Assembly (NCBI GenBank): GCA_963843145.1
Contig: CAWJJC010000028.1
Span: 288,001 to 352,000, forward strand
Direction: 5' to 3'
DNA length: 64,000 nt
Source of the DNA: an uncultured delta proteobacterium
Lineage (GTDB): Bacteria > Desulfobacterota > RBG-13-43-22
The first letter of the stretch is position 1, and the number at the start of each line of letters is the position of its first letter. The position numbers were made by a program, and so were the translations under genes. The notes under the pieces are model-generated. The model made no database searches. It was not told where the DNA came from and saw nothing but the letters and a program-made list of their open reading frames with translations. This document shows, piece by piece, positions 3,670 to 63,777 of the stretch.

Positions 3670-3757
3670 CGTCATTGCGAGGAGAGTAGCGACGAAGCAA
3701 TCCCCGATATTCAGCAAGTTGCCGCTATGGGGATTGCTTCGCTTTGCTCGCAATGAC
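3670..3757. repeat. GTCATTGCGA-type REP-like palindromic doublet
   Basis: gtcattgcgag...gaagcaatccc...gggattgcttcg...ctcgcaatgac; copies at 20534-20633 and 39499-39596. Confidence 0.8.
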
Positions 3758-5989: not shown

Positions 5990-6064
5990 CTAAATTCGAA
6001 ATCCGAAACGTTTTTGTTTGGATCATTTGGGTTTTGGACCTTCGTGCTTCGAATTTCGAGTTTT
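5990..6064. repeat. Short version of heptamer-based hairpin repeat
   Basis: aaattcgaaatccgaaacgtttttgtttggatcatttgggttttggaccttcgtgcttcgaatttcgag. Confidence 0.75.
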
Positions 6065-6072
6065 CTAAGCGT

Positions 6073-7053
6073 CTAAGCGGGAGCGACCAACAGCAACGGT
6101 TCCGGTGCGGGGAAGGGAAGGGCGGAGGGAGGAAGATAGAGGGAATAGCGGCCGGGTTTTTTCAGGTCGAGTGGCTTTAAGCCCTCCAGGAATTTGTCCG
6201 TTTCCCGATTGCTGGTTCCCGGTTCGGAAAAGAAATTCTCGATCCATTGCCGCAAGGGACTGAGGTCCCCGGCCTGGGACCAGCGCCGATAACTCGCCAA
6301 GAACCCCTCGAAGGAGGGGAAACGCAGGGCGGGCAGGGGCAGGGAGGGCGATGGAGATTCGTCACCGGTTAAGGCGTAGTGCTCCCGCCGGACCCAGGGT
6401 TGGTTGGTTATCAAACGGACCGGCCCGGGAGCCAATTGGGCTCTCAGCTTTCTCCAGGCGGCCAGGGCCGGTGGGCAAACCATTTCCGCTTCAGTGGGGG
6501 TGACAAAGGGTTTTTCGGACGAGGCCCAGTCCAGGGAAAATTCAGGGCTCTGATCCATGATCCGGGCCAGAGCCAGTTCCTGTTCCCCGAAGTCACCCAA
6601 CGAGAGATCGATCTCCCATTCCTTGCTCAGCCAGTCATGGATAATACAGAGGAATAATTCTCCCGTCAGGGCCTGGCGAGTTTCTGTTTCCTCCCTGGGT
6701 TTTGCGGGTTGGCCCCTCAGCAGACCCAGTATTTCGTCCCGGCTTTCCAGATTTTCCCCGGGTTTCACCTGCCTGAGATATTCCAGGAAGCTGAAATCCG
6801 GGTTCTGGGCCGCGAAGGATTGGAACTCCCTCAACCCCCTGTCTTTTTGCCTGATTTCCTCCGGGGTTCGATCCGGCGTCAGGACCTGGATCAGGCCGCC
6901 CGTCAGCAGTTCCCGGTAAGGCTCAGGCCAAACCAAGCTATAGGGGTGAAGGAAGACCAGCGGCCCAAATAGCAGCAGCGACCAATAGGTGGCCTCCGGC
7001 TCCATTAAGGTGTAGGGGGTAACCAATACTTCTTGAATACGATTATTTTCCAT
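6073..7053 (-). CDS. Hypothetical protein
   Basis: 326-aa ORF with ATG start filling an otherwise non-coding interval; no motif recognised. Confidence 0.7.
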   Translation of the reverse strand: MENNRIQEVLVTPYTLMEPEATYWSLLLFGPLVFLHPYSLVWPEPYRELLTGGLIQVLTPDRTPEEIRQKDRGLREFQSFAAQNPDFSFLEYLRQVKPGENLESRDEILGLLRGQPAKPREETETRQALTGELFLCIIHDWLSKEWEIDLSLGDFGEQELALARIMDQSPEFSLDWASSEKPFVTPTEAEMVCPPALAAWRKLRAQLAPGPVRLITNQPWVRREHYALTGDESPSPSLPLPALRFPSFEGFLASYRRWSQAGDLSPLRQWIENFFSEPGTSNRETDKFLEGLKPLDLKKPGRYSLYLPPSALPFPAPEPLLLVAPA

Positions 7054-15359: not shown

Positions 15360-15568
15360 TGATTGAAAAAATCGCAAAAAGTCCCAAACTGTCATCCTGA
15401 GCCCCGCCGAAGGCGGGATAAACTCCGCGAAGGATCTCAGTTTTCGGCTCAGGGTAAACTCCGCGAATAATATTACAACCTATTGAAAAAACAATATTAT
15501 TCGTTCTGAATTATCGCGGGACGAAGAATTAAAAGCGCTCCCTGATGGGCCTTTTGCGAACAGATCAT
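15360..15568. mobile_element. MITE-like element with CGCAAAAAGTC/GACTTTTTGCG-type ends and an internal REP
   Basis: tcgcaaaaagtccc ... gggccttttgcgaacagatca; similar ends at 17735-17758, 22633-22744, 25676-25703 and 45845-45862. Confidence 0.55.
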
Positions 15569-16065
15569 AGCGGGGCGAGTTAAGACCGGATAGAGAATTT
15601 CGTTTCAGCCCGGCCGATATTAAGGAAATCCGATTGAACCTGCATAAATCTCAGGCGGAATTTTCTCTGATGATCGGGGTTAGCGTTTCCACGCTTCAGA
15701 ATTGGGAGCAGGGCCGGCGGGTTCCGGAAGGTCCCGCCCGGGCACTACTTAAAATCGCCGCCGAAAAACCAGGGGCGGTTATAGAGGCCTTGAGTGGTTA
15801 ATGGGGACTTTCTTCGGCCTGGCCTTATGCGTCGGAGGAAAATAGCAAATAATAATTCTCCGAATTCCTCAGCAGGGCAGGAATCCACCGACTTTTGATC
15901 ACCTCCCGGTCTCTTTTCGTTATGAAGGTTTTACGGGATTCGATTCCCCAGGCCGTCACGCTCTGCAAGGCCCCGGGGACGTTCGGGCGAACACTAACTA
16001 ATCGAGGCTTGCTTTTTTCTTAAGTCCTTTTTACAACCACCGGCGAGTATATTCAGAAACTACGT
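15544..16065 (+). repeat. Copy 1 of ~520-bp direct repeat
   Basis: Aligns with 17734-18249; near-identical over the HTH part, more diverged 3'. Confidence 0.9.
15571..15801 (+). pseudogene. 5'-truncated Xre/HigA-like HTH antitoxin gene
   Basis: Manual translation RGELRPDREFRFSPADIKEIRLNLHKSQAEFSLMIGVSVSTLQNWEQGRRVPEGPARALLKIAAEKPGAVIEALSG*; no start codon. Confidence 0.75.
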
Positions 16066-16188
16066 GCCCTTGTCTCTCATAGGATGTCCCCCTTTACTCG
16101 ATCCCAGACCTGGGAGCCGTACCCTGAAAAATGGAAAAGCAACCGGCCCCCGGCCTTGGCCCCTTTGACCAGCCATGTTAAGTATTTC

Positions 16189-16223: not shown

Positions 16224-16736
16224 ATGAACCTCAAACCCCAAGATATAATCATTCTCTTGAAGCTTATCGTGCTGGGTGAAGACCAGTGGTCTTATGCATC
16301 CCTGGCCAGCGATCTGTTCATGAGCACTTCAGAGGTCCATGCCGGTATAAAGCGCGCGGTTGTAGCTCGCCTGATGGATTCCCAAAGAGGACGCCCCCTG
16401 AAACAATCGCTGGAAGAATTCCTCATTCATGGCGTCAAATATGCGTTTGCCCCGGATCATGGCGGTCTGACCCGAGGCGTTCCTACCGGATATGCGGCGC
16501 CACCGCTCAATAACATGATTTCTCAACCAATGGACCCTCCCCCCGTATGGTCGGATCCGGAAGGTGATACGCGCGGGTATGAATTCTCGCCCTTGTATAA
16601 GTCTGTCCCGAAGGCCGCCTTAAAAGACAAAATACTTTATGAATTAATCGTTCTAGTTGATGCCATCCGAGACGGGAGAGCCCGCGAAAGAGAAATTGCC
16701 ATCAAAGAACTCAAAATGCGATTAGGATCACCATGA
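16224..16736 (+). CDS. HTH-containing protein, putative antitoxin/regulator
   Basis: N-terminal WSYASLASDLFMSTSEVH helix-turn-helix-like segment; ATGA overlap with the next gene. Confidence 0.75.
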   Translation: MNLKPQDIIILLKLIVLGEDQWSYASLASDLFMSTSEVHAGIKRAVVARLMDSQRGRPLKQSLEEFLIHGVKYAFAPDHGGLTRGVPTGYAAPPLNNMISQPMDPPPVWSDPEGDTRGYEFSPLYKSVPKAALKDKILYELIVLVDAIRDGRAREREIAIKELKMRLGSP

Positions 16737-17449
16737 TCAATAACCAAAACATCAATATCCGGATGATCATCCATGTGGCCAAACGCCTTGGTGTCTTGAG
16801 GGACAAGGTTGTTTTCGTCGGGGGTTGCGCCACGGGATTGTTTATTACAGATCCGGCCCTACCTGAAGTCCGGGCCACGCAGGATGTGGATGTCATTGTC
16901 GAGGTTGCCTCACGGGTGGAATATTACAGACTTGAAGAAGAACTTCGGAGCAGGGATTTCAAACAGGATATGAGTGAAAATGCGCCGGTCTGCCGTTGGC
17001 TGGTTGATACGATCACAGTGGATATCATGCCTACGCGGGAAGATATACTGGGGTTCTCCAACCGCTGGTATCTGCCCGCCATTAAGAATGCAAACCCTAT
17101 TGAAATCGAAAAAAAATTGACTATTCGACTCGTGACACCCCCCTATTTCCTGGCAACCAAAATTGAAGCCTTTGAGGGACGTAGCGGTGGAGATTATATG
17201 GCCAGTCACGACCTGGAAGACATCATCACGGTCCTGGATGGCCGTCCGGAAATCGTTTCGGAAATCAAAAGCTCATCCGATGACCTTAAGATTTTCTTAT
17301 CCGGTACATTTCGAATGCTTCTGGAAAAGGACGAATTCCTCGATGCCATTCCAGGGCATCTGCCACCCGATCGTGCAAGCCAGGCAAGATTGCCACGGCT
17401 CATGAGATGCATCGAGGAGATATCAAAGATTCATGATTCTGTGCGGTAA
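16733..17449 (+). CDS. Nucleotidyltransferase (AbiEii/MenT-like), putative toxin
   Basis: VFVGGCA...ATQDVD Pol-beta motif; KIEAF..R..SHDLEDI C-terminal motif. Confidence 0.7.
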   Translation: MINNQNINIRMIIHVAKRLGVLRDKVVFVGGCATGLFITDPALPEVRATQDVDVIVEVASRVEYYRLEEELRSRDFKQDMSENAPVCRWLVDTITVDIMPTREDILGFSNRWYLPAIKNANPIEIEKKLTIRLVTPPYFLATKIEAFEGRSGGDYMASHDLEDIITVLDGRPEIVSEIKSSSDDLKIFLSGTFRMLLEKDEFLDAIPGHLPPDRASQARLPRLMRCIEEISKIHDSVR

Positions 17450-17679: not shown

Positions 17680-17733
17680 GATGCCTTCTTAATAAATTGA
17701 AACCGTAATTGACCCCTTCTCCTTTTTTCTCTC

Positions 17734-18249
17734 TGACGGACTTTTTGCGAACAGATCACGGCGGGGCGAGTTAAGACCGGAGAGAGAATTTCGTTTCAGC
17801 CCGGCCGATATTAAGGAAATTCGATTGAACCTGCGTAAATCTCAGGGGGAATTTTCTCTGATGATCGGGGTTAGCGTTTCCACGCTTCAGAATTGGGAGC
17901 AGGGCCGGCGGGTCCCGGAAGGCCCCGCCCGGGCACTACTTAAAATCGCCGCCGAAAAACCAGGGGCGGTTATAGAGGCCTTGAGTGGTTAATGGGGACT
18001 TTCTTCGGCTTGGCCCTATTCGTCGGAGGAAAATAGCAGGTAATAATTCACCGAATTCCTCAGCAGGGCAGTCCATCGACCTTTGACCACAACCCGGTGT
18101 CATTTCCTTTTGAAGATCTAATGGGATTCGATTCCCCGGCTTGTGACGTAGTGCAAGACGCCGGGGACGTTCGGGCGAACACTAATCAAGGCTTGCTTTT
18201 TTCTTAAGCCCTTTTAACAACCATCGGCAAGTATATTCAGAAACTACGT
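17734..18249 (+). repeat. Copy 2 of ~520-bp direct repeat, including a second truncated HTH gene (17762-17992)
   Basis: Aligns with 15544-16065. Confidence 0.9.
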
Positions 18250-18307
18250 CCCGCATTACGTAATTTTAGAAAAAATGAACTAAATATAATCACTGACTTT
18301 TCTTAAA

Positions 18308-19629: not shown

Positions 19630-20278
19630 TAAGGTAAACCCCCGGCTAGGCCGGGGGACTCCAAAAGTTTGACAATTCCGGGAATATAAGAAAGCCTCCC
19701 GACTGTGAACCGCTCAAAGTTTACAGAGAAGGAGGCTTCCAATGGAACACACCAGAAGTTTAAGCCATACCAAGTGGGAATGCAAATATCATATAGTCTG
19801 GATACCGAAATGTCGAAAAAAGACATTGTATGGTCATCTGCGCCAATATCTAGGGGAGTTGTTCAAAGAATTGGCTACCCAAAAGGAATGCGCCATTATC
19901 GAAGGGCACCTCTTGGCGGACCATGTGCATATTTTGATCTCGATACCCCCCAAATATGCGGTCGCCCAAGTCGTGGGGTATCTCAAGGGAAAGAGTGCGA
20001 TCCACATTGCCCGAGTTTATCTGGGACGAAAAAAGAACTTTGTTGGTCAACATTTTTGGGCCAGGGGATACTATGTTTCAACCGTGGGCAAAGATGAAGT
20101 AGCTACCCGAAATTATATTAAGAATCAAGAAAAAGAAGATCATCATCTGGACCAGATCGAACTGTTTCCGGAAGAAGATAAACCGACCACAGATAAACCA
20201 TCTTCAGATGGTGAATAAATAATCCGCTTTGAGCGGTTCACAATTTCAAGCCTCCGGCTTTGCCGGAGGTACTTGACT
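19630..20278 (+). mobile_element. IS200/IS605-family element (tnpA only)
   Basis: Subterminal hairpins cccccggctaggccggggg and cctccggctttgccggagg; internal IR tgtgaaccgctcaaag/ctttgagcggttcaca. Confidence 0.9.
19742..20218 (+). CDS. tnpA: IS200-type HUH (Y1) transposase
   Basis: CKYHIVWIPK, DHVHILISIPPKY, FWARGYYVSTVG and YIKNQ motifs. Confidence 0.95.
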   Translation: MEHTRSLSHTKWECKYHIVWIPKCRKKTLYGHLRQYLGELFKELATQKECAIIEGHLLADHVHILISIPPKYAVAQVVGYLKGKSAIHIARVYLGRKKNFVGQHFWARGYYVSTVGKDEVATRNYIKNQEKEDHHLDQIELFPEEDKPTTDKPSSDGE

Positions 20279-20363: not shown

Positions 20364-20440
20364 TGGTCGGGACGACTGGATTTGAACCAGCGGCCCCCTG
20401 AACCCCATTCAGGTGCGCTACCAGTCTGCGCCACGTCCCG
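20364..20440 (-). tRNA. tRNA-Pro (GGG)
   Basis: CGGGACGTGGCGCAGACTGGTAGCGCACCTGAATGGGGTTCAGGGGGCCGCTGGTTCAAATCCAGTCGTCCCGACCA cloverleaf with encoded CCA. Confidence 0.97.
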
Positions 20441-20722: not shown

Positions 20723-22386
20723 CTATTGTTTCAGAACAATGGGGAAAAACAAGGAGGAAACACATCCCGGCGCCCGGAAGGCCCCAATCCGGGAATTCCA
20801 TTGCGATGGACTGGTGGCGCTATAATATTCTCCGGTGTACCAGAAGGTGCAGTTGTCCACCGGATCCACGGTCATAGCGCTGTAATCTCCCCAGCGGTTG
20901 TTTCCTGTTTGCACTCCGCCTCCGGCTACCAGGATGGCCTCGCTTCCCAGGACGCCCGGCGGGTCGGATTCCCGGCGGGTGGTATAACGCAGGTCCGGGA
21001 AGATAGTCGATCCGGAAACGCTATAGCCCAGGGCGATATTTCCGGAACCGTCCAGGGCGATGCTGCCCATAAAGCGGTGGAGGGTATCCGGGGCAAAGGT
21101 CCCTTCCTGGTACAGGAACCAATCCCCGGTGGTCCGACGCAGCTCAAACCAACGGATCCCGGCCTGGCCGCCGCCGGCATCCACCGTAAAATTTCCCACC
21201 AGGGCTTCGTGGGAGGTGAAACGGCGATAAGGCAGCCGCCACATGGGCCATTCGGAGACCGCGTCCACGAGCGATCCGGGGGGCTCTTGCGGGATGCAGT
21301 CTTGAATGAAGAATCCGCAGACCGTATATTTGAAATCGGCGATCGGCAGGATCAGCGGGGCTGAAAAGGTCGAGTTCGCGGTATTGACCCAGTCGGCATG
21401 GAAAAAGCGAAGTTCCAGGCGGTTGGTGGTGACCCCGTGAGCCGGGAAGTCTTTATTTTTGAAGGTATAAAAATGGCCCGGGGCATTGGCGGGTGGGGGA
21501 GTGGTCCCATCCACGGTGGCCGGCATCAAAAAGTTCGTTTCTCCGGTAAAGCGGATGAACTGGGCCGCTTGGCCCAGGAGCATCTTTTCGCGCTCCAGAG
21601 CATAGGCGCTGTAGGTCGTTTCGTTGGCGCTCACATAGTAGGCGTCGGGCCAGACTCCCAATTTGAAATAATCCGGGCCTTCCGGAAAGGTAAATTCATA
21701 AAGATGATAGGATGTCGGACAGGGTCCGAAGTTCGGGAGACGGCCACACACAACCCGAAGGGCGCGGTTAATCTGAACTGGGCCAGGACCCAGCGGTCAG
21801 CCAGGGAGTCGAAGACCACCACCGGATCTCCTTCATTCGCGGCGGCACACAGGCCTCCAGCCACGCTCCACAAATCTTTAAAAAGGGTGGGAGCCTTGAT
21901 CTGATTTCCCTTTTTGTCGTAGATGCTGAAGTAGGTGCCATTGGTCATCTGGAGATAGTGGCGGGGGCCCACCGCGCCTATCGGGTCCGGCGGGCTCACA
22001 TGGCCCGAGCTTCCAATCCCATCTACCGAAACCTGAGGAGGCGGGGTCGGCTGCAAAAGGAGAGAGGCCTTTTGCCGGACGAGATCATCCGCCGGGGCGG
22101 GTTGCGATAAGGAGCCGGTTAAATCCGGATGGGGATTGCGGCGAGGGGGCCGATTTTCCCCGAGGAGGGCGCCGATGCGATCGGGCAAATCCCGAACCGC
22201 CGGACTCAACGCCGGTTTTGACGAGACCCCCACCCAGGGCCCGGAAATTTGGGATCGGGTGATTTGATTTCCGGGAATAGTCTGGGCCTGGGAAAAACCG
22301 GATAGCGAGGCCAGGAGCAGGACTGAAACAAAGATTACCGGAAACCCGCCGTGCGTTTGACCTGTTTTGCCTGAAAAGAACTTCAT
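20723..22386 (-). CDS. Secreted hypothetical protein, frameshifted near 21720
   Basis: Signal peptide; PPDPIGAVGPRHY and GDPVVVFD in ORF 21631..22386 continue into RWGDYSAMTVDPVDNCTFWYTGEY in ORF 20723..21751; ends LFFPIVLKQ. Confidence 0.75.
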
Positions 22387-22555: not shown

Positions 22556-22584
22556 TTGACAGGAAGGGCTTTGGCTTTTATAGT
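22556..22584 (+). promoter_or_regulatory. Sigma70 promoter for the frhB-ior operon
   Basis: TTGACA-17-TATAGT. Confidence 0.65.
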
Positions 22585-22753: not shown

Positions 22754-23789
22754 GTGCCGGAGAGTTTGAACCAGACCATATCCGCCCAGGACAATTTAAT
22801 AAAGGGTGTTTTAAACCAAGACCTGTGCAGCGCCTGCGGGGCCTGCGTCGGACTGTGCCCTTATTTTGCTTTTTTCCGGGGGCGGGTGGTGGTCGTGGAT
22901 CGTTGCAGTCTGGCCGAGGGGCGCTGCGGCGCCTATTGTCCGCAACTGAATCCCGGGGATTGGCTGAAGCAGGAGGGGCTGGGTCCGGTTCAGGAGCAGT
23001 GGATGGCCCGGGCCCAGACCAGGTCCCTGCAACGAAAGGGGCAGTACGGGGGCACGGTTACCACCCTGATCCAATTGGCGCTGGAATTGGGCTGGATCCA
23101 GGGTGCGCTTGTTAACCGGGACCGGAAAGAGGGGCGAGCCCGAAGGGCGGATCTGCCGGACCCGGGCCGAAGTCCTGGCCTGCGCCGGGTCCAAGTATAC
23201 CGGGGCCGGTACGCTATCGGCCCTCAAGCCGGCCCTCGAGGCCAATGAGGGGAAGCTCGGCGCGGTGGGCCTGCCCTGCCAGATTACGGCCCTGAACAAT
23301 ATTCACGGCTACCTCACCCGGCAAGGGAGACCTTTTTCGGAGGCGATCTTAAAGATCGGACTTTTTTGCACCTGGTCTCTGCCTTTGAAAAAACTGCAAG
23401 AAAAACTCCGGGAGCAGGGGATTCATGATCCGGTGGTTAAATACGACATTCCCCCGCCCCCGGCGGAGGAATTCCAGGTTTTCACCCGGAAAAAGACCTA
23501 TACCCTCCCTTTGACCGAGATCCGGCCCCTGGTTCCCCGGGGCTGCCTGGCCTGTGGGGATATGACCGCCGAGGGGGCGGATATTTCCGTCGGTTCGGCC
23601 GAGGGGGTGCCGGGCTGGAATACGGTCCTGATTCGCTCGGAAAGAGGACGGCAGCTCTTTAAAGAGGCCCAATCCAAAAATCTGCTTGAAGTCAAACCGC
23701 TGCCGGAAACAAATGAAGGCCATCTGCGGACGGCGGCCGGGTTGAAGAAATCCAGGGCCCGCGCGCTGAGGGAGGAAATCCTTGCCTGA
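22754..23789 (+). CDS. Coenzyme F420 hydrogenase/dehydrogenase beta-subunit-like Fe-S flavoprotein, frameshifted near 23113
   Basis: CSACGACVGLCP and QYGGTVT in the first ORF; AGSKY, VGLPCQ, IGLFC and C..C.D.TAE.ADISVG in the second. Confidence 0.8.
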
Positions 23790-25674
23790 AATCCCGGATC
23801 AACTGTTGATGGGCAATGAGGCCATCGCCCGGGGGGCCCTGGAGGCCGGGATCTCCTTCGCGGCCGGTTATCCCGGCAATCCCTCCTCCGAGATCATCGA
23901 GACCTTGGCCAGGGAAGTGAAAAACCACCGGCTCTACGTGGAGTGGTCCATCAACGAGAAGGTGGCTCTGGAAGCGGCGGCGGCCGCCTCCTTTGCCGGA
24001 TTGCGGGCCCTGGCCACCATGAAGCAGAACGGGGTCAACGTGGCCTCGGACTTCATCACCAACCTGACCCTCTCCGGGACCGGGGCCGGTCTGGTGCTGG
24101 TGACCTGCGACGACCCCTCGGGACTTTCCAGCACCAACGAGCAGGACGCCCGGTTCATTGCCCGACTGGCCGATCTGCCGCTCCTGGAGCCCTCCTCCCC
24201 CCAGGAGGCCCTGGAGATGACCCGCTTCGCCTTTGACCTGTCGGAATCCATCGGCAATCTGGTGGTCCTGCGCAGTGTTTCCCGCCTTTCGCACACCCGC
24301 CGGAATTGTCGCGTAGGGGAATTGCGGCGCCGGGACCCCCGGCCGGTGGTTGATCTGAATAAATTATTTCATACCTTTCCGGTAATGGCCAGGCACCAGG
24401 CCATGCATGACAAACTCCGGCGAGCGGCGGAGCTCGGGGAGCAGTCCTCCTTCAACCGCCACGAAGGGCCGGACCGCGCCGAACTGCTGATCGTCACCTG
24501 CGGTTCCGGTTGGGATTACAGCCGGGAGGCCGTGGAACTGCTGGGCCTCGGCGACCGGGTCGGGGTGGCCAAGGTGGGAATGACCTGGCCTTTGCCGGTC
24601 GGTTGGCTGAGGCCTTATCTGGAGCAGGCGGGTAAACTCCTGTTCATCGAGGAAGTGGACCCCTTCCTGGAAGCGGGGGTTAAGGAATGGGCGGCCCAGA
24701 TCGGCCCGGAAATCGGGACCCGGACGTTTTACGGTAAGGAGAGCGGCCATATTCCCCAGTGGGGGGAACAGACCCCGGACCGGGTGATCGAGGCCTTAAC
24801 GCAAATCCTCGGCCTGGACTATCAGCCCCGGGAACCCGGCTACCAGGAGAAAATTTCCAGACTGGTCCAGGAGATGGTGCCGCCCCGGGAATTCGGTTTC
24901 TGTCCCGGCTGCCCGCATCGGGCCACCTACTGGGCCGTCAAAAACGCCCTGCAGCTTGACGGACGCGACGGATTTGTGGCCGGGGACATCGGCTGTTACA
25001 CTATGGCTATCGGACCCACGGGCTTCAACCAGATTAAATCCGTTCATGCCATGGGCTCCGGCCTGGGATTACTTTCCGGGTACGGTCAGTTGGGTACCTT
25101 TGGGTTTACCCAACCGGTGATCTCGGTGGTCGGCGATTCGACCTTTTTTCACGCGGCCATTCCGGCCCTGATCAACCTGGTCCATAACCGGGCCAGGGCG
25201 CTTGTTCTGGTTCTGGACAACCGGGCCACGGCTATGACCGGGTTCCAACCCCATCCGGGCCTGGAGACCAATGTTCTGGGTCAGGCGGTACCTTCCATCC
25301 CGGTGGAAAACCTGTGCGCCTCCCTGGGTTTGCCGGTGACCATTTTGGATCCCTATGACCTGGAGGGGACCAGCGAACATATTTTTCAAGCCTTGCAGGA
25401 AACCGAGGGGGTGCGAGTCCTGATCCTGCGCCGTGCCTGCGCCCTGGTTCAGGGCCGGGAGGGGGGGTACTCGTTTCGGATGCGGGTCAATGCCGAGCGC
25501 TGTCTGGGAGACGCTTGCGGCTGCAACCGCTACTGCTCCCGCGTTTTTCGCTGCCCGGGATTAATCTGGGATGAAAAATCGGGCCGGGCCGGGATCGATG
25601 AGGTTATTTGCGTGGGCTGCGGGGTCTGTACCCAGGTCTGCCCCCAACAGGCGATCGAAAAAGAGGAGCGGTAG
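23782..25674 (+). CDS. iorA: Indolepyruvate ferredoxin oxidoreductase alpha subunit
   Basis: MGNEAIARGA, WSINEKVALE, FCPGCPHR, GDIGCY, GDSTFFH and C-terminal ferredoxin motifs. Confidence 0.93.
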   Translation: MPEIPDQLLMGNEAIARGALEAGISFAAGYPGNPSSEIIETLAREVKNHRLYVEWSINEKVALEAAAAASFAGLRALATMKQNGVNVASDFITNLTLSGTGAGLVLVTCDDPSGLSSTNEQDARFIARLADLPLLEPSSPQEALEMTRFAFDLSESIGNLVVLRSVSRLSHTRRNCRVGELRRRDPRPVVDLNKLFHTFPVMARHQAMHDKLRRAAELGEQSSFNRHEGPDRAELLIVTCGSGWDYSREAVELLGLGDRVGVAKVGMTWPLPVGWLRPYLEQAGKLLFIEEVDPFLEAGVKEWAAQIGPEIGTRTFYGKESGHIPQWGEQTPDRVIEALTQILGLDYQPREPGYQEKISRLVQEMVPPREFGFCPGCPHRATYWAVKNALQLDGRDGFVAGDIGCYTMAIGPTGFNQIKSVHAMGSGLGLLSGYGQLGTFGFTQPVISVVGDSTFFHAAIPALINLVHNRARALVLVLDNRATAMTGFQPHPGLETNVLGQAVPSIPVENLCASLGLPVTILDPYDLEGTSEHIFQALQETEGVRVLILRRACALVQGREGGYSFRMRVNAERCLGDACGCNRYCSRVFRCPGLIWDEKSGRAGIDEVICVGCGVCTQVCPQQAIEKEER

Positions 25675-25708: not shown

Positions 25709-26329
25709 ATGATCCCGGATCTGTTCAAAGAACCGATCAATCTGATTATCACCGGAGTCGGGGGGCAGGGTAATGTGCTGGCCTCCCAGGTGCTGGGCCG
25801 GATGCTGATCCGTAAAGGGCTGCTGGTAACCATCGGGGAGACCTATGGGCTCTCCCAGCGGGGTGGGGCGGTTATGAGCCAGGTCCGAATTTCGGGTCGC
25901 AAGACCTACGGACCCATGATTCCCCAGGGTCAGGCCGATCTGGTCGCCGGTCTGGAACCCCTGGAGGTGCTCCGTACCTTGGGGCCTTACGGGCGTCCGG
26001 ATATCCAGGTTTTGACCAACGACCGCCCGATTTATCCGATCAACGTGCTCAGCGGGAGCTCGGTCTATCCGGGGACGGATAAAATCCATCAGACCCTGGA
26101 GGATCTGGCCCGAAAGGTCTGGTGGCTGCCGATTACCCGGGAGGCCCTGCAATTGGGCAACGCCATCTTGGCCAATATGGTCATGGTCGGCGCCCTGATC
26201 GGGACCGGTCTCTTGCCGCTGACGGCGGAAGACTTCACCCCTCTGGCCCAAAGTCTCTGGGATACCCAGCGCGCGGATTTGAATATCCGGGCCATAGAAA
26301 AAGGGGTTCAACTGGTTCGGAGCGTATGA
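25709..26329 (+). CDS. iorB: Indolepyruvate ferredoxin oxidoreductase beta subunit
   Basis: GVGGQGNV and ETYGLSQRGGAV motifs. Confidence 0.9.
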   Translation: MIPDLFKEPINLIITGVGGQGNVLASQVLGRMLIRKGLLVTIGETYGLSQRGGAVMSQVRISGRKTYGPMIPQGQADLVAGLEPLEVLRTLGPYGRPDIQVLTNDRPIYPINVLSGSSVYPGTDKIHQTLEDLARKVWWLPITREALQLGNAILANMVMVGALIGTGLLPLTAEDFTPLAQSLWDTQRADLNIRAIEKGVQLVRSV

Positions 26330-26568
26330 GCGAAAACACCTCCAGGGCGGGTTACGTGATCATCTACGGCCGGGACGGCTGACCGTTCACCCGAAAGGCC
26401 CTGGAGGCCTACCGACAAAAAGAAAGGGCCGTAGAATTTCATAATCCAGCGCTGGAAAAAGAGTTCCTGGAGGAATTCCTCCGGGTCTCGCCGGACCGAA
26501 AAATTCCGGTGATCGTGGAGGGGGATCAGGTGCGCATCGGTTTTGACGGCGCCTGAAAGCTGCGCTGA
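26326..26568 (+). CDS. Glutaredoxin-like selenoprotein with two Sec codons (UXX-star-like)
   Basis: MSENTSRAGYVIIYGRDG-U-PFTRKALE...RKIPVIVEGDQVRIGFDGA-U-KLR*; TGA at 26380 and 26554, each followed by a GC hairpin. Confidence 0.85.
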
Positions 26569-26609
26569 TCCGGCCGGTTCGGGCCGCGACTGATTTTGAA
26601 TGAAGGCCA

Positions 26610-27830
26610 ATGAAGGGGAAGGTCGTGGAAGAAGAGAATACTAGTAATAATACCAAAAAAGCAGGGTCGAAAAAAAAGCCGGTTATTATTATGGCGGGTG
26701 TGGCGCTCTTGGCGGTTATCGGCGGGTACCTCTATTGGCGGTACTCCCAAACCCATATTTCTACCGATGACGCCTATGTGGCCGGGTCCATCTATTCCGT
26801 TAGTTTCCGGATACCGGGGACCGTGAGCAAGGTATGGGTTCATGACAATCAACTGGTGGAATCAGGGCAGGAGCTGGTGACCCTGGACCCCGCTGATTAT
26901 GAAGTGGCCTATAAACAGGCCCAGGCCACTCTGGAAAACCTCAAGGCCCGCTGGGCTTCCGCCCGGATGGCGGTCCCTCTGGAATCCGACCAGACCCGGG
27001 CCCGGGTGGATGAATCCAAGGCCGGGGTAGGGACCTCCGAAAAAAACGTGGACGAAGCCCGGCAACAACTCCGGCGGCTGCAAGAAGAAACGAAAACCCA
27101 GCAGGCCCTCCTGGACAAGGCTACCTGGGATCGGGACCGCTTCAGCAAACTCTTCCAGCAGAAGGCCGTCTCCCGGCAGCAATACGACGACGCCCAAACG
27201 CAGTATGAGGTGGCCTTTTCGCGTCACCAGGGGTCTTTGGCCGCCCAACAGGCCCTGCAAAATTCCATTGCCGGTCTGGGCGAACAGATCAAGCGGGCCC
27301 AGGCCCAGGTGGTCTTTGCGGAGACCGGCCGGCAGGGGGTCAAGATCAAGAAACAGCAACTGGAGGCTGCCAAGGCGGAATTATCTTTGGCCGAGGCCCG
27401 GCTCGATCAGGCCCGGTTACAATTGTCGTATACCCGGATCCTGGCCCCGGCTCGCGGCCACATAACCAAAAAAAATGTGGAAGTTGGAAATTTGGTCCAG
27501 GCCGGACAGCCTTTGATGGCCCTGGTCCCTCTGGAAGACCTTTGGGTGGTGGCCAATTACAAGGAAACCCAGCTAAAGCGGGTGAAGAAAGGTCAAGAGG
27601 TGACCATCAAGGTGGATACCTTCCCGGGCAAGAAAATCAAAGGCCGGGTCGAAAGTCTCATGGCCGGAACGGGATCGGCCTTTTCCCTGTTCCCGCCTGA
27701 AAATGCTACCGGAAACTTCGTTAAGATCGTTCAGCGCCTCCCGGTCAAAATCGTACTGGAAAAGAACCAGGAACTCCCACCTCTGCGGGTCGGCATGTCG
27801 GTGGAACCCACCATCTTAGTAAAAGAATAA
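26610..27830 (+). CDS. emrA: HlyD/EmrA family membrane fusion protein
   Basis: STDDAYV, ANYKETQL and PPENATGNFVKIVQR motifs. Confidence 0.9.
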   Translation: MKGKVVEEENTSNNTKKAGSKKKPVIIMAGVALLAVIGGYLYWRYSQTHISTDDAYVAGSIYSVSFRIPGTVSKVWVHDNQLVESGQELVTLDPADYEVAYKQAQATLENLKARWASARMAVPLESDQTRARVDESKAGVGTSEKNVDEARQQLRRLQEETKTQQALLDKATWDRDRFSKLFQQKAVSRQQYDDAQTQYEVAFSRHQGSLAAQQALQNSIAGLGEQIKRAQAQVVFAETGRQGVKIKKQQLEAAKAELSLAEARLDQARLQLSYTRILAPARGHITKKNVEVGNLVQAGQPLMALVPLEDLWVVANYKETQLKRVKKGQEVTIKVDTFPGKKIKGRVESLMAGTGSAFSLFPPENATGNFVKIVQRLPVKIVLEKNQELPPLRVGMSVEPTILVKE

Positions 27831-27993
27831 CCAAAAATATTTGAATTTTTGGTTAGAAATCCGAAATCCGAATTTCGAAACTCGAAACAAATTCAAATGC
27901 TCCAATATCAAAATCCGAAACGTTTTGTTTTGATCATTTGGATTTTGGACCTTCGTGCTTGTTTCGGATTTCGTGCTTCGAATTTCGAATTTA
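27829..27993. repeat. Full heptamer-based long hairpin repeat inside the emrAB operon
   Basis: aaccaaaaat..atttttggtt cap, then GAAATCC/GAAACTC arm and mirror TTCGGAT/TTCGAAT arm. Confidence 0.85.
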
Positions 27994-28017
27994 GGTGTAA
28001 CCTGTCTGAAGGTCGGA

Positions 28018-32774: not shown

Positions 32775-33023
32775 AACCAAAAATAATTGAATTTTTGGTT
32801 GGAAACTCGAAATCCGAAACTCGAAACTCGAAACAAATTCGAATGACCGAAACTCGAAACGTTTTTGTTTGGGTCATTTGAATTTTGGACTTTCGTGTTT
32901 GTTTCGGCCTGCGACGAGACCTGTCGGCGAGCCCTTCGACAGACTCAGGGCCTTGAGCTTGCCGAAAAGGCTCAGGTCGAGCCGCTCAGCCGAGTCGATT
33001 TCGTGCTTCGAATTTCGGATTTA
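32775..33023. repeat. Heptamer-based hairpin repeat with nested ~90-bp insertion
   Basis: Same cap and arms as 27829-27993, with extra sequence at ~32908-32997. Confidence 0.85.
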
Positions 33024-33044
33024 GCTGAAGGCTGATCGCGTCTA

Positions 33045-47589: not shown

Positions 47590-47685
47590 TTCCATAATTC
47601 CAATCTGTATAATCAAAACAAAAACGTTTTGAATTTTGATCATTTGAATTTGTTTCGGATTTCGAAATTCGAATTTCGAATTTGA
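47590..47685. repeat. Heptamer-based hairpin repeat (partial) between the helicase and typA
   Basis: ttttgatcatttgaatttgtttcggatttcgaaattcgaatttcgaattt. Confidence 0.75.
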
Positions 47686-47720
47686 ACCAAACAGGCAACT
47701 GTTTTAGGCCGAGGAATATT

Positions 47721-61838: not shown

Positions 61839-62732
61839 TCAAGCATTATTTGGGTGGCCAGCCGTTTGTTGCCTAATCACCTCCATGGCTTTGAAGTAGT
61901 CTCGCTGCACCTTAAGGTTTGAAATCCGGCAGTACCGTTGTGTGGTTTTCACATGGCTATGACCCAGGAGATCTTGAATGGTGGAAAGATCGGCATCGGC
62001 ATTGAGCAGTTGGGTGGCCATGGTATGGCGAAGATGATGACAGGACACCTTGAGCTTGGCTTGGCGAGCATAAGTTTCCATGCGCCGCTGAATGCCGCGG
62101 ATGGAGATGGGCTGCCCCTGACAAGGTTTCTTTTCCGCCAGAAAGATCTTTCTGGCCTTGGATGGCGGCCTCACCGTCAGATAGGCGGCCAGGGCCTGAA
62201 GGGCATCATGGCTCATATAGACGACCCGATCTTTTCCGCCCTTACCGTCTTCCACCAGGATAGTCCTGCGTTTGACGTCTATGACCCCGATCGTTAGCTG
62301 GGCGACTTCTTCCACCCGTAACCCGCAACGGAGCATGAGCATGAACATGGCCCGGTCACGGGCGCTCTTGATGACCTTAAAGAAGGTCTCCACCTGATCA
62401 TCTCTCAGGTGTCGGGGAAGGGGCTGGGACATCTTCTGGAGATGAGTCTTCTTGATGGGATTGGTGATAATCACCCCTTCCTCATCCCGCAGGTAATGGT
62501 AGAACTGGCGAATACCGTTCAAGTGGCAGTTGACCGTCTTGGGCGCCAGCCTCTTCCTCATGAGATGCTCGATGTAGCGTGACACGGTTACGTGGGTCAC
62601 GGCCTCCACCGGCACATCCAGCCAGATGATAAAGTGTTTAATGAGGTTCAGATAGTTCTTCACGGCATGGGGCGAACAGTTCCGCCGCTTTAAAAATCTT
62701 TGCCAGTTCAGGATCGCATCGGTCATCGCCAT
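61839..62732 (-). CDS. Tyrosine recombinase (XerC/D-like)
   Basis: GLRVEE, GKGGKDR, HHLRHTMAT and LLGHSHVKTTQRY motifs. Confidence 0.93.
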   Translation of the reverse strand: MAMTDAILNWQRFLKRRNCSPHAVKNYLNLIKHFIIWLDVPVEAVTHVTVSRYIEHLMRKRLAPKTVNCHLNGIRQFYHYLRDEEGVIITNPIKKTHLQKMSQPLPRHLRDDQVETFFKVIKSARDRAMFMLMLRCGLRVEEVAQLTIGVIDVKRRTILVEDGKGGKDRVVYMSHDALQALAAYLTVRPPSKARKIFLAEKKPCQGQPISIRGIQRRMETYARQAKLKVSCHHLRHTMATQLLNADADLSTIQDLLGHSHVKTTQRYCRISNLKVQRDYFKAMEVIRQQTAGHPNNA

Positions 62733-63777
62733 TACTGTCCCTCCTCTCTATTTTCGACATGGCTCTAAAATACTCAGCCTCCCGGGTCTTATCAGTCAGC
62801 CGGGCATACCGCCGGGTTTCCTCGATGCTCCGGTGCCCCAACAAAACTTGGAGACACTCCAGACGCAGGCCGGCGTTGAGAAACTCCGTGGCAAAGGTAT
62901 GGCGAAGGGTATGCAGGGAATATCCCTTGTCCGCCAATCCCGCCTTCTCCAGATAGCGCATAAAAATGGTCCGGGCGGTGCTGTAGGACATGGTCTCTGT
63001 CCGGGTATAGATCAGGTACTCCTCACCGGGATTCCTCTTCTTCAACCACCTCCGCAGAGCCAGGACCGCATCGTCGCTGAGATAGACCACCCTCCCCAGG
63101 CGGTTCTTCTCGCCTTCATAAATCTCTATCTTCCGTTCCTTAAGATGGACGTCGGCCATCTTGGTATTAAGCAGTTCTCCGATCCGCAGGCCCGTCCTCA
63201 ACAAGACCAGGATCATGGCCCGGTCACGAATATCGTCAATGACCGAAAGCAGCTTCCGCAGATCGTCAGGATCCATGGCCCGCGGCAGCCGCTCCGGTAA
63301 TTGCAACCGTATCCTCCTGCTGAAGAGTTCCGCGGAAACCCTTCCTTCTTCTAACAGGTAACGGAGAAAGGCTTGCACACTCACCAGCCTGGTCCTGATC
63401 GTTGTAATCTTAATCCCCCGGTCCTGCTCCCGCTCGATAAAGGTTTCCACATCCCTTCGGGTAATGGCTTCCAGGGATGTCCTGCCGCTCTCCCGTATCA
63501 GGCCCAGAAAAAGAATGATCGCCCCAAAACGGCTGTACAAAGTTCTCGGTCTGCGGTTGCCATACGTCAGGTGACGAAGATAGGCTTCCACCTGATCCTT
63601 CCCCGGAAGGTCCATCCGGACCAGCCGTTTTAAAATCTGGCCCAGCGCTTCTAAACAGTCTTTAGAATTTATTCTAAATCGTAATCGCGTTTGATAATAA
63701 TGGGGAGCGTTAACGGCGGGAATCTTAAAATCAGAAGATTTACTCGTCTGCTGTAGATCACTATGTCCGTTCATCAT
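62638..63777 (-). CDS. Tyrosine recombinase with N-terminal extension
   Basis: GLRIGE, HTLRHTFAT and LLGHRSIEETRRY motifs; AAGGAG RBS. Confidence 0.93.
   Translation of the reverse strand: MMNGHSDLQQTSKSSDFKIPAVNAPHYYQTRLRFRINSKDCLEALGQILKRLVRMDLPGKDQVEAYLRHLTYGNRRPRTLYSRFGAIILFLGLIRESGRTSLEAITRRDVETFIEREQDRGIKITTIRTRLVSVQAFLRYLLEEGRVSAELFSRRIRLQLPERLPRAMDPDDLRKLLSVIDDIRDRAMILVLLRTGLRIGELLNTKMADVHLKERKIEIYEGEKNRLGRVVYLSDDAVLALRRWLKKRNPGEEYLIYTRTETMSYSTARTIFMRYLEKAGLADKGYSLHTLRHTFATEFLNAGLRLECLQVLLGHRSIEETRRYARLTDKTREAEYFRAMSKIERRDSNGDDRCDPELAKIFKAAELFAPCREELSEPH

Follow-up and report, generated by a model that had tools for sequence, protein, structure and literature searches.

The window, by which we mean the whole 64,000-nucleotide stretch of DNA that was analyzed, carries on its forward strand a cluster that begins with a FrhB/FpoF-like Fe-S flavoprotein gene (22754-23789) and continues with iorA-like (23782-25674) and iorB-like (25709-26329) genes for the alpha and beta subunits of indolepyruvate ferredoxin oxidoreductase. 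Both subunit matches fall below the model cut-offs: iorA scores 566.6 bits against TIGR03336 (cut-off 650.9), and iorB, which has a POR domain, matches TIGR03334 with an E value of 7e-46. Ahead of the cluster lies a sigma-70-like promoter match (22556-22584, forward strand; 11/12, a consensus match only), in a stretch also conserved in L002 and L003 (the three closest relatives are L001-L003). The FrhB-like gene that the initial annotation had named is real and lies upstream, but in the window one inserted nucleotide near 23110 breaks its frame; it is intact in L001-L003, and the extra base is probably an assembly indel. Similar splits occur in iorA of L002 and valS of L003.

At 26326-26329 the iorB stop and a following ATG share the bases ATGA, and this ATG opens a frame of 80 residues (26326-26568, forward strand) that is interrupted by TGA at codons 19 (26380-26382) and 77 (26554-26556). 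Codon 19 stands in the context GRDG-U-PFT, a UxxT motif located where helix 1 begins; codon 77 stands near the C-terminus in the context GFDGA-U-KLR, and a third TGA (26566-26568), three residues further on, is read as the true stop. A hairpin follows each of the first two TGAs on the same strand. Hairpin 1 (26396-26410 in the family register) lies in the coding region, 13 nt past its TGA, with 5 bp and a 5-nt loop; hairpin 2 (26571-26586) lies in 3' non-coding sequence, 14 nt past its TGA, with 7 bp, a loop that starts with GG 19 nt after Sec77, and a folding energy of -11.4 kcal/mol. The overlapping start, the 80-codon frame, the TGA within a redox motif and the second TGA near the C-terminal end are all present as first described. 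The span then given, 26326-26592, covers both the frame and the 3' hairpin; the frame itself ends at 26568, and the end at 26592 takes in the hairpin. The gene had also been said to be missed by ORF callers: it is indeed absent from the table-11 ORF listing (at least 70 aa), but NCBI records (P0087, P0088 and P0166) already bear the name of its family.

A scan of the window for read-through TGAs gave 235 candidates, among which, by eye, only this gene had a recognizable selenocysteine (Sec) motif. The possibility that TGA means Trp or Gly here, under a recoded genetic code, was rejected, since 11 of the 36 long ORFs in the window end in TGA and TGG is used 195 times. Elsewhere in the window, two overlapping reverse-strand ORFs (21631-22386 and 20723-21751, together 20723-22386) resemble the two parts of a single secreted protein whose frame has been shifted. 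A short intergenic repeat family occupies five or more sites (8-77, 5997-6075, 27829-28004, 32775-33034 and 47626-47695), and other short palindromic repeats occur at 3671, 15419, 39499 and 45915. Direct repeats of about 500 nt (15538-16068 and 17729-18252; 80-95% identical in pieces) enclose two genes (16224-16736 and 16733-17449) that are joined by an ATGA overlap of their own, and the arrangement looks like a small mobile insertion. Judged by eye, an IS200/IS605 transposase-like ORF (19742-20218, forward strand) adjoins a tRNA-Pro (20364-20440), and two tandem reverse-strand ORFs at 61839-63777 resemble XerC/D-type tyrosine recombinases.

Membership of the read-through protein in the 'UXX-star' family, to which the initial annotation had pointed, was borne out by NCBIfam model NF041114.2 (UXX-star selenoprotein family 1), against which it scored 81.5 bits with a cut-off of 72 (E 3.8e-23; profile positions 1-69 of 70); three close orthologs likewise exceed the cut-off. 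Residues 11-78 also resemble the Uxx-star subfamily NF041212, families 2 and 3, and the HUGP/GUXX-star fusion (NF041211, NF047338 and NF045501), with E values from 4e-17 to 2.5e-8, but all of these scores are below the respective cut-offs (62.2 vs 66 for NF041212; 34.6 vs 100, 33.8 vs 97 and 39.4 vs 325 for the others). The Pfam glutaredoxin model PF00462 gave 22.2 bits, just under its gathering score of 22.9, and with UxxT the protein also differs from a classical glutaredoxin (CxxC/CxxS) in its motif. A homolog search with the single sequence returned one candidate and nothing significant; an alignment-based search returned 3149 proteins. The primary paper on the UXX-star families is reportedly that of Haft and Tolstoy from 2025. 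Table 1 of a 2026 review lists family 1 as 'Distant Grx-like protein 1', a high-confidence prediction with a UxxT motif and two Sec (PMC13188914), and the family also appears in an earlier review (PMC9312934); its name was not found in passages of PMC2398784, which the 2026 review cites for it.

The two-Sec layout is therefore already known for UXX-star family 1, and the gene in the window is a minor variant of a catalogued family. It shares with that family the score above the equivalog cut-off, the UxxT motif (U19-P-F-T22), the two Sec, the length class and the SECIS layout. We file it as a variant because three residues, instead of two, follow the last Sec: the family name, as we read it, implies a two-residue spacing before the stop, which is found in 76 of the 80 related loci described below (best 80 of 181), whereas the window protein and its counterparts in L001-L003 end in KLR. 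It further differs from the family in a short N-terminal extension of about six residues, in its operon position with a start that overlaps the iorB stop, in a hairpin 1 whose loop G is shifted by one base, and in the long branch on which its clade sits.

Whether homologs have Cys or TGA at the two positions was examined with a genome scan whose pattern covered neither TGA. The scan returned 197 stretches, of which 181 were confirmed and the best 80 kept as related loci; 78 were parsed by script, and for L048 and L074 the sequence itself was read. Of these 80 (best 80 of 181), 70 have TGA at site 1 and the other 10 have TGC/TGT there; at site 2 every one of the 80 has TGA. Among 167 database proteins shorter than 160 aa, 55 have W at both sites, 96 have Cys at site 1 and end at site 2, five have Cys at both sites, and 11 are other or partial; we infer that the W/W entries are TGAs misread by code-4 gene calls. 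On a tree of 81 rows, built from 72 columns only, Cys-form loci fall in four places, one of them a clade of seven, so that site 1 has at least four separate Cys groups. One TGA/TGA carrier, L025, is the Olavius symbiont Delta 1, for which PMC13326102 lists 56 selenoprotein genes. Another two-Sec member (L015, 9989-10213), located downstream of an AhpD/CMD-family gene, has four residues after its last Sec and may be sister to the window clade, although this would be a long-branch join.

These data bear on two other accounts of the locus. If codon 19 alone were recoded and TGA77 were a stop, the product would be a 76-residue protein with one Sec; such a form also passes the family cut-off (75.4 bits), and the 96 database proteins that end at site 2 have that shape. 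Real stops behave differently from site 2, however. A stop stands two codons past site 2 in 76 of the 80 loci (best 80 of 181) and is TAA or TAG in 36 of these 76 (37/81 sequences for the family stop as a whole), whereas site 2 is never TAA or TAG; five database proteins have Cys there, and at SECIS distance beyond it lies a G-loop hairpin that lacks a U tail. We therefore regard the one-Sec protein as very improbable. The second account, in which an organism without Sec carries a pseudogene or its sequence contains an artefact, could appeal to the apparent indel error in the nearby FrhB-like gene and to the Sec machinery, since selA, selB, selC and selD were not seen in the 64-kb window. A scan for tRNA-Sec found none in the window or in the 40 of the 80 loci that it covered. 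Against a pseudogene or artefact, three relatives that were assembled independently carry the two TGAs and the two hairpins in identical form, and the frame is under purifying selection (dN/dS 0.20-0.42 among four orthologs, the window gene and its three close relatives); an artefact or dead gene is accordingly a highly improbable explanation.

The hairpins were compared with the bSECIS consensus, which calls for a loop of 3-9 nt with G in one of its first two positions, a spacing of 16-37 nt and an energy of -7.5 kcal/mol or lower (PMC13188914, section 5). Taken alone, hairpin 1 is at chance level: its fold z-score is 0.29 over a stretch of about 60 nt, and a stem as long arose in 76 of 1000 shuffles. 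It has the consensus spacing, but at -4.2 kcal/mol it misses the energy threshold, and its G is third in the loop in the family register; only a bulged register brings it into the first two positions. The energy threshold was discarded as a discriminator at site 1, where it performs no better than on random TGAs (16/70 family sites pass vs 49/243 random TGAs).

Across the family the picture is different. Of the 70 TGA loci, 68 preserve the +18/+24 pair of hairpin 1, both members of which are third codon positions (44 C-G, 21 U-A and 3 U-G; best 80 of 181), as do only 3 of 10 Cys loci, and the loop sequence G[G/U] is found in 70/70 TGA loci vs 4/10 Cys loci (best 80 of 181), a contrast that rests largely on one clade of seven Cys loci. 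At +7, the Arg codons CGC, CGA and AGA are used in 0 of 64 cases, against 48% among background Arg codons. Pairing and covariation of hairpin 1 beat 500/500 shuffles and all slid controls in a set of 36 hand-chosen sequences, uncorrected for kinship; the signal sits in the three inner pairs, and the outermost pair is mostly broken. The clade of Cys forms (L005, L008, L012, L017, L021, L026 and L028) has lost the +18/+24 pair, and three lone Cys forms retain most of the hairpin, a distribution consistent with decay of the SECIS element following a change from Sec to Cys. The family covariation supports a real hairpin 1.

Hairpin 2 matches the bSECIS consensus by our own script (not bSECISearch). 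In isolation it too is at chance level (fold z-score 0.67 over about 60 nt; a stem as long in 363 of 1000 shuffles), and again the family is more telling: 79 of the 80 loci have a perfect stem of at least 5 bp whose loop starts with G at a spacing of 15-25 nt, whereas 27.5% of shuffles do, and the stems are of 42 distinct kinds (best 80 of 181), with 65 of the 80 site-2 hairpins passing -7.5 kcal/mol (best 80 of 181). These stems were counted by script, the MAFFT alignment having misplaced the loops. A role for hairpin 2 as a terminator was rejected, since it has no U tail and was not picked up by the terminator scan. The GC hairpins that the initial annotation had noted some 13-15 nt after each TGA are therefore significant not on their own but because they are conserved across relatives with compensatory changes, as expected of SECIS elements.

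The third TGA probably terminates translation because it is only 8 nt from the loop of hairpin 2, outside the 16-37 nt range. A longer protein with three Sec would account for the 33 nt past TGA77, including the third TGA and five more codons, being identical in all four close loci. That identity, however, stops where hairpin 2 stops, with divergence beginning directly after it; the read-through peptides of the close relatives vary in sequence and length, and their sequences share no hairpin past the third TGA. A three-Sec product thus seems extremely improbable. The comparison across relatives identifies both upstream TGAs as conserved Sec/Cys positions, each with its own conserved hairpin whose loop lies 18-19 nt further on, and on this comparative basis the hidden redox gene is real and almost certainly encodes two selenocysteines. 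We are fairly confident in the fuller reading, namely a genuine 80-residue protein of UXX-star family 1 type from a deltaproteobacterial (Desulfobacterota-like) lineage, with SECIS-driven Sec insertion and a glutaredoxin-type redox role. Two points speak against this reading: no selA, selB, selC or selD was seen in the 64-kb window, and hairpin 1 of the window departs from the strict consensus.

The surroundings of the gene differ sharply between its closest relatives and the rest of the family. In L001-L003 the order promoter-like site, frhB-like, iorA, iorB, selenoprotein gene, emrA, emrB, valS is kept, the Ior and FrhB proteins are 85-98% identical among the four loci, and the ATGA overlap with iorB is present in all three relatives; the overlap is found in 0 of the 77 other loci (best 80 of 181), of which 66 extend at least 1 kb and 50 at least 4 kb upstream. 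In L001 and L002, about 130 nt of inserted sequence lie between iorA and iorB. The window and L001-L003 form a single clade whose branch is long (0.8 changes per site; support 99/97). Linkage to iorAB is accordingly seen in 3 of 80 loci, all in one clade (best 80 of 181), and not across independent lineages; L046 has weak iorA/iorB-like matches, 3.9-6.4 kb downstream and on the opposite strand. For the other 77 loci, 138 neighboring ORFs were picked, and all 66 upstream (29 without a Pfam match) and 50 of 72 downstream (four without) were scanned. They include PTS EI/HPr (10), PAS/GAF sensors (7), LOG (5) and beta-CASP (4) proteins, as well as NUDIX and TerC, with AhpD-like, aldehyde oxidoreductase, acyl-CoA dehydrogenase and rubrerythrin genes as scattered redox neighbors; no 2-oxoacid oxidoreductase was among the scanned 66 upstream and 50 downstream ORFs.

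Because the ATGA overlap is kept in L001-L003 and the terminator scan found no terminator-like site between iorB and emrA, co-expression and translational coupling with iorB are likely in this lineage; in it alone the gene closes the frhB-like/iorA/iorB operon, and its translation probably starts by re-initiation at the overlap. The initial annotation had described a two-Sec redox partner co-expressed with the FrhB-like protein and IorAB; the two Sec and the likely co-expression hold, whereas the partner role finds little footing, with the coupling in none of the 77 other loci. A dedicated partner might protect or reactivate Fe-S or thiol centers of the IorAB/FrhB-like enzymes, or take electrons from the ferredoxin that they reduce. 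The conserved gene order and overlap speak for such a role, as does the long branch with its own N-terminal extension, a possible sign of specialization. Yet the four loci form one clade and hence record one event, the downstream genes emrAB (efflux) and valS (tRNA ligase) are equally syntenic, and our literature search found no paper in which selenoprotein, selenocysteine, glutaredoxin and indolepyruvate ferredoxin oxidoreductase all appear together. We consider a dedicated partner unlikely. A more specific version, in which a divergent UXX-star protein has become the fourth component, stoichiometric and translationally coupled, of a FrhB-like/IorAB complex, where its U19-U77 diselenide would carry electrons released in 2-oxoacid oxidation to a thiol maintenance that needs no glutathione, strikes us as distinctly doubtful; if true, it would provide the first partner for UXX-star family 1. 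Most likely, the product is a general redox protein that shares the expression of the operon and is not an Ior subunit.

The glutaredoxin-like character first ascribed to the protein is matched by its predicted fold. Two AlphaFold models were made with Cys in place of Sec, one of the window protein (pLDDT 90.1) and one of a canonical member from L023 (pLDDT 93.4). The predicted fold is a minimal thioredoxin fold, nearest to NrdH (Z 9.2, rmsd 1.9, 66 aligned) and cGrx1 (Z 9.0). NrdH-redoxin and the clostridial cGrx1 and cGrx2 (PDB 1h75, 7c10 and 4tr0) are also the best sequence matches among solved structures (E of about 1e-11), and no solved structure of a UXX-star family was among the structure-search matches. 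Unlike these proteins, the window protein has UxxT and not CxxC/UxxC, and it aligns only to residue 75, beyond which it has a short Sec-bearing tail. In both models the sole two-residue strands are formed by the tail Sec with the next residue and by the two residues before the conserved proline; in the window model these are 77-78 and 59-60, as read from secondary-structure labels only.

In bacteria, SelB bound to a hairpin inserts Sec, and in glutaredoxins the substrate cysteine pairs with the residues before the cis-Pro, adjoining the nucleophile. We propose that SelB on each hairpin would insert Sec at codons 19 and 77, with translation ending at the third TGA. U19, sitting where helix 1 of a minimal glutaredoxin/NrdH fold begins, would be the nucleophile; the tail may fold back and thereby pair U77 with the two residues that precede cis-Pro61, in the groove where glutaredoxins hold their substrate, and U77 could then act as a resolving or relay residue through a U19-U77 diselenide. 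The product would be a self-contained thiol/disulfide or thiol/peroxide reductase. The fold-back, the placement of U77 beside cis-Pro61 and the diselenide relay come from the models, and we think them about evenly poised between right and wrong. The C-terminal Sec arm of animal thioredoxin reductase offers an analogy, with Sec at the extreme C-terminus and a possible electron relay from an internal redox center, but the two proteins are unrelated. Our literature search found no functional study of, or activity data for, UXX-star family 1.

The two Sec might instead serve mainly as metal or metalloid ligands, in detoxification or trafficking, rather than in thiol redox turnover. The 2026 review suggests that the Sec of UXX-star proteins may be a metal-binding ligand or bind unknown substrates (PMC13188914), the tail Sec is invariant while U19 can be replaced by Cys, and among the scanned neighbors TerC accounts for 2 of the 66 upstream ORFs and TerB for 2 of the 50 downstream ones. 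These metal-related neighbors are a small minority, though, no metal-resistance gene adjoins the gene in the window, and the combination of a helix-1 UxxT and a cis-Pro-type motif is a redox-type arrangement. We thus see a primarily metal-binding role as rather unlikely and favor the reductase described above.

The gene call corrects an omission in annotation and enlarges a known two-Sec family by a slightly deviant member, and the attachment to a frhB-like/iorA/iorB operon was observed in a single group of close relatives only. For selenoprotein specialists, the family is instructive in that its tail Sec is invariant (80/80) and the Sec of the motif has been repeatedly exchanged for Cys (70/80 TGA; best 80 of 181 in both cases). 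The models suggest that the tail Sec sits in the substrate groove, which would provide a cheap test of the mechanism of the family.
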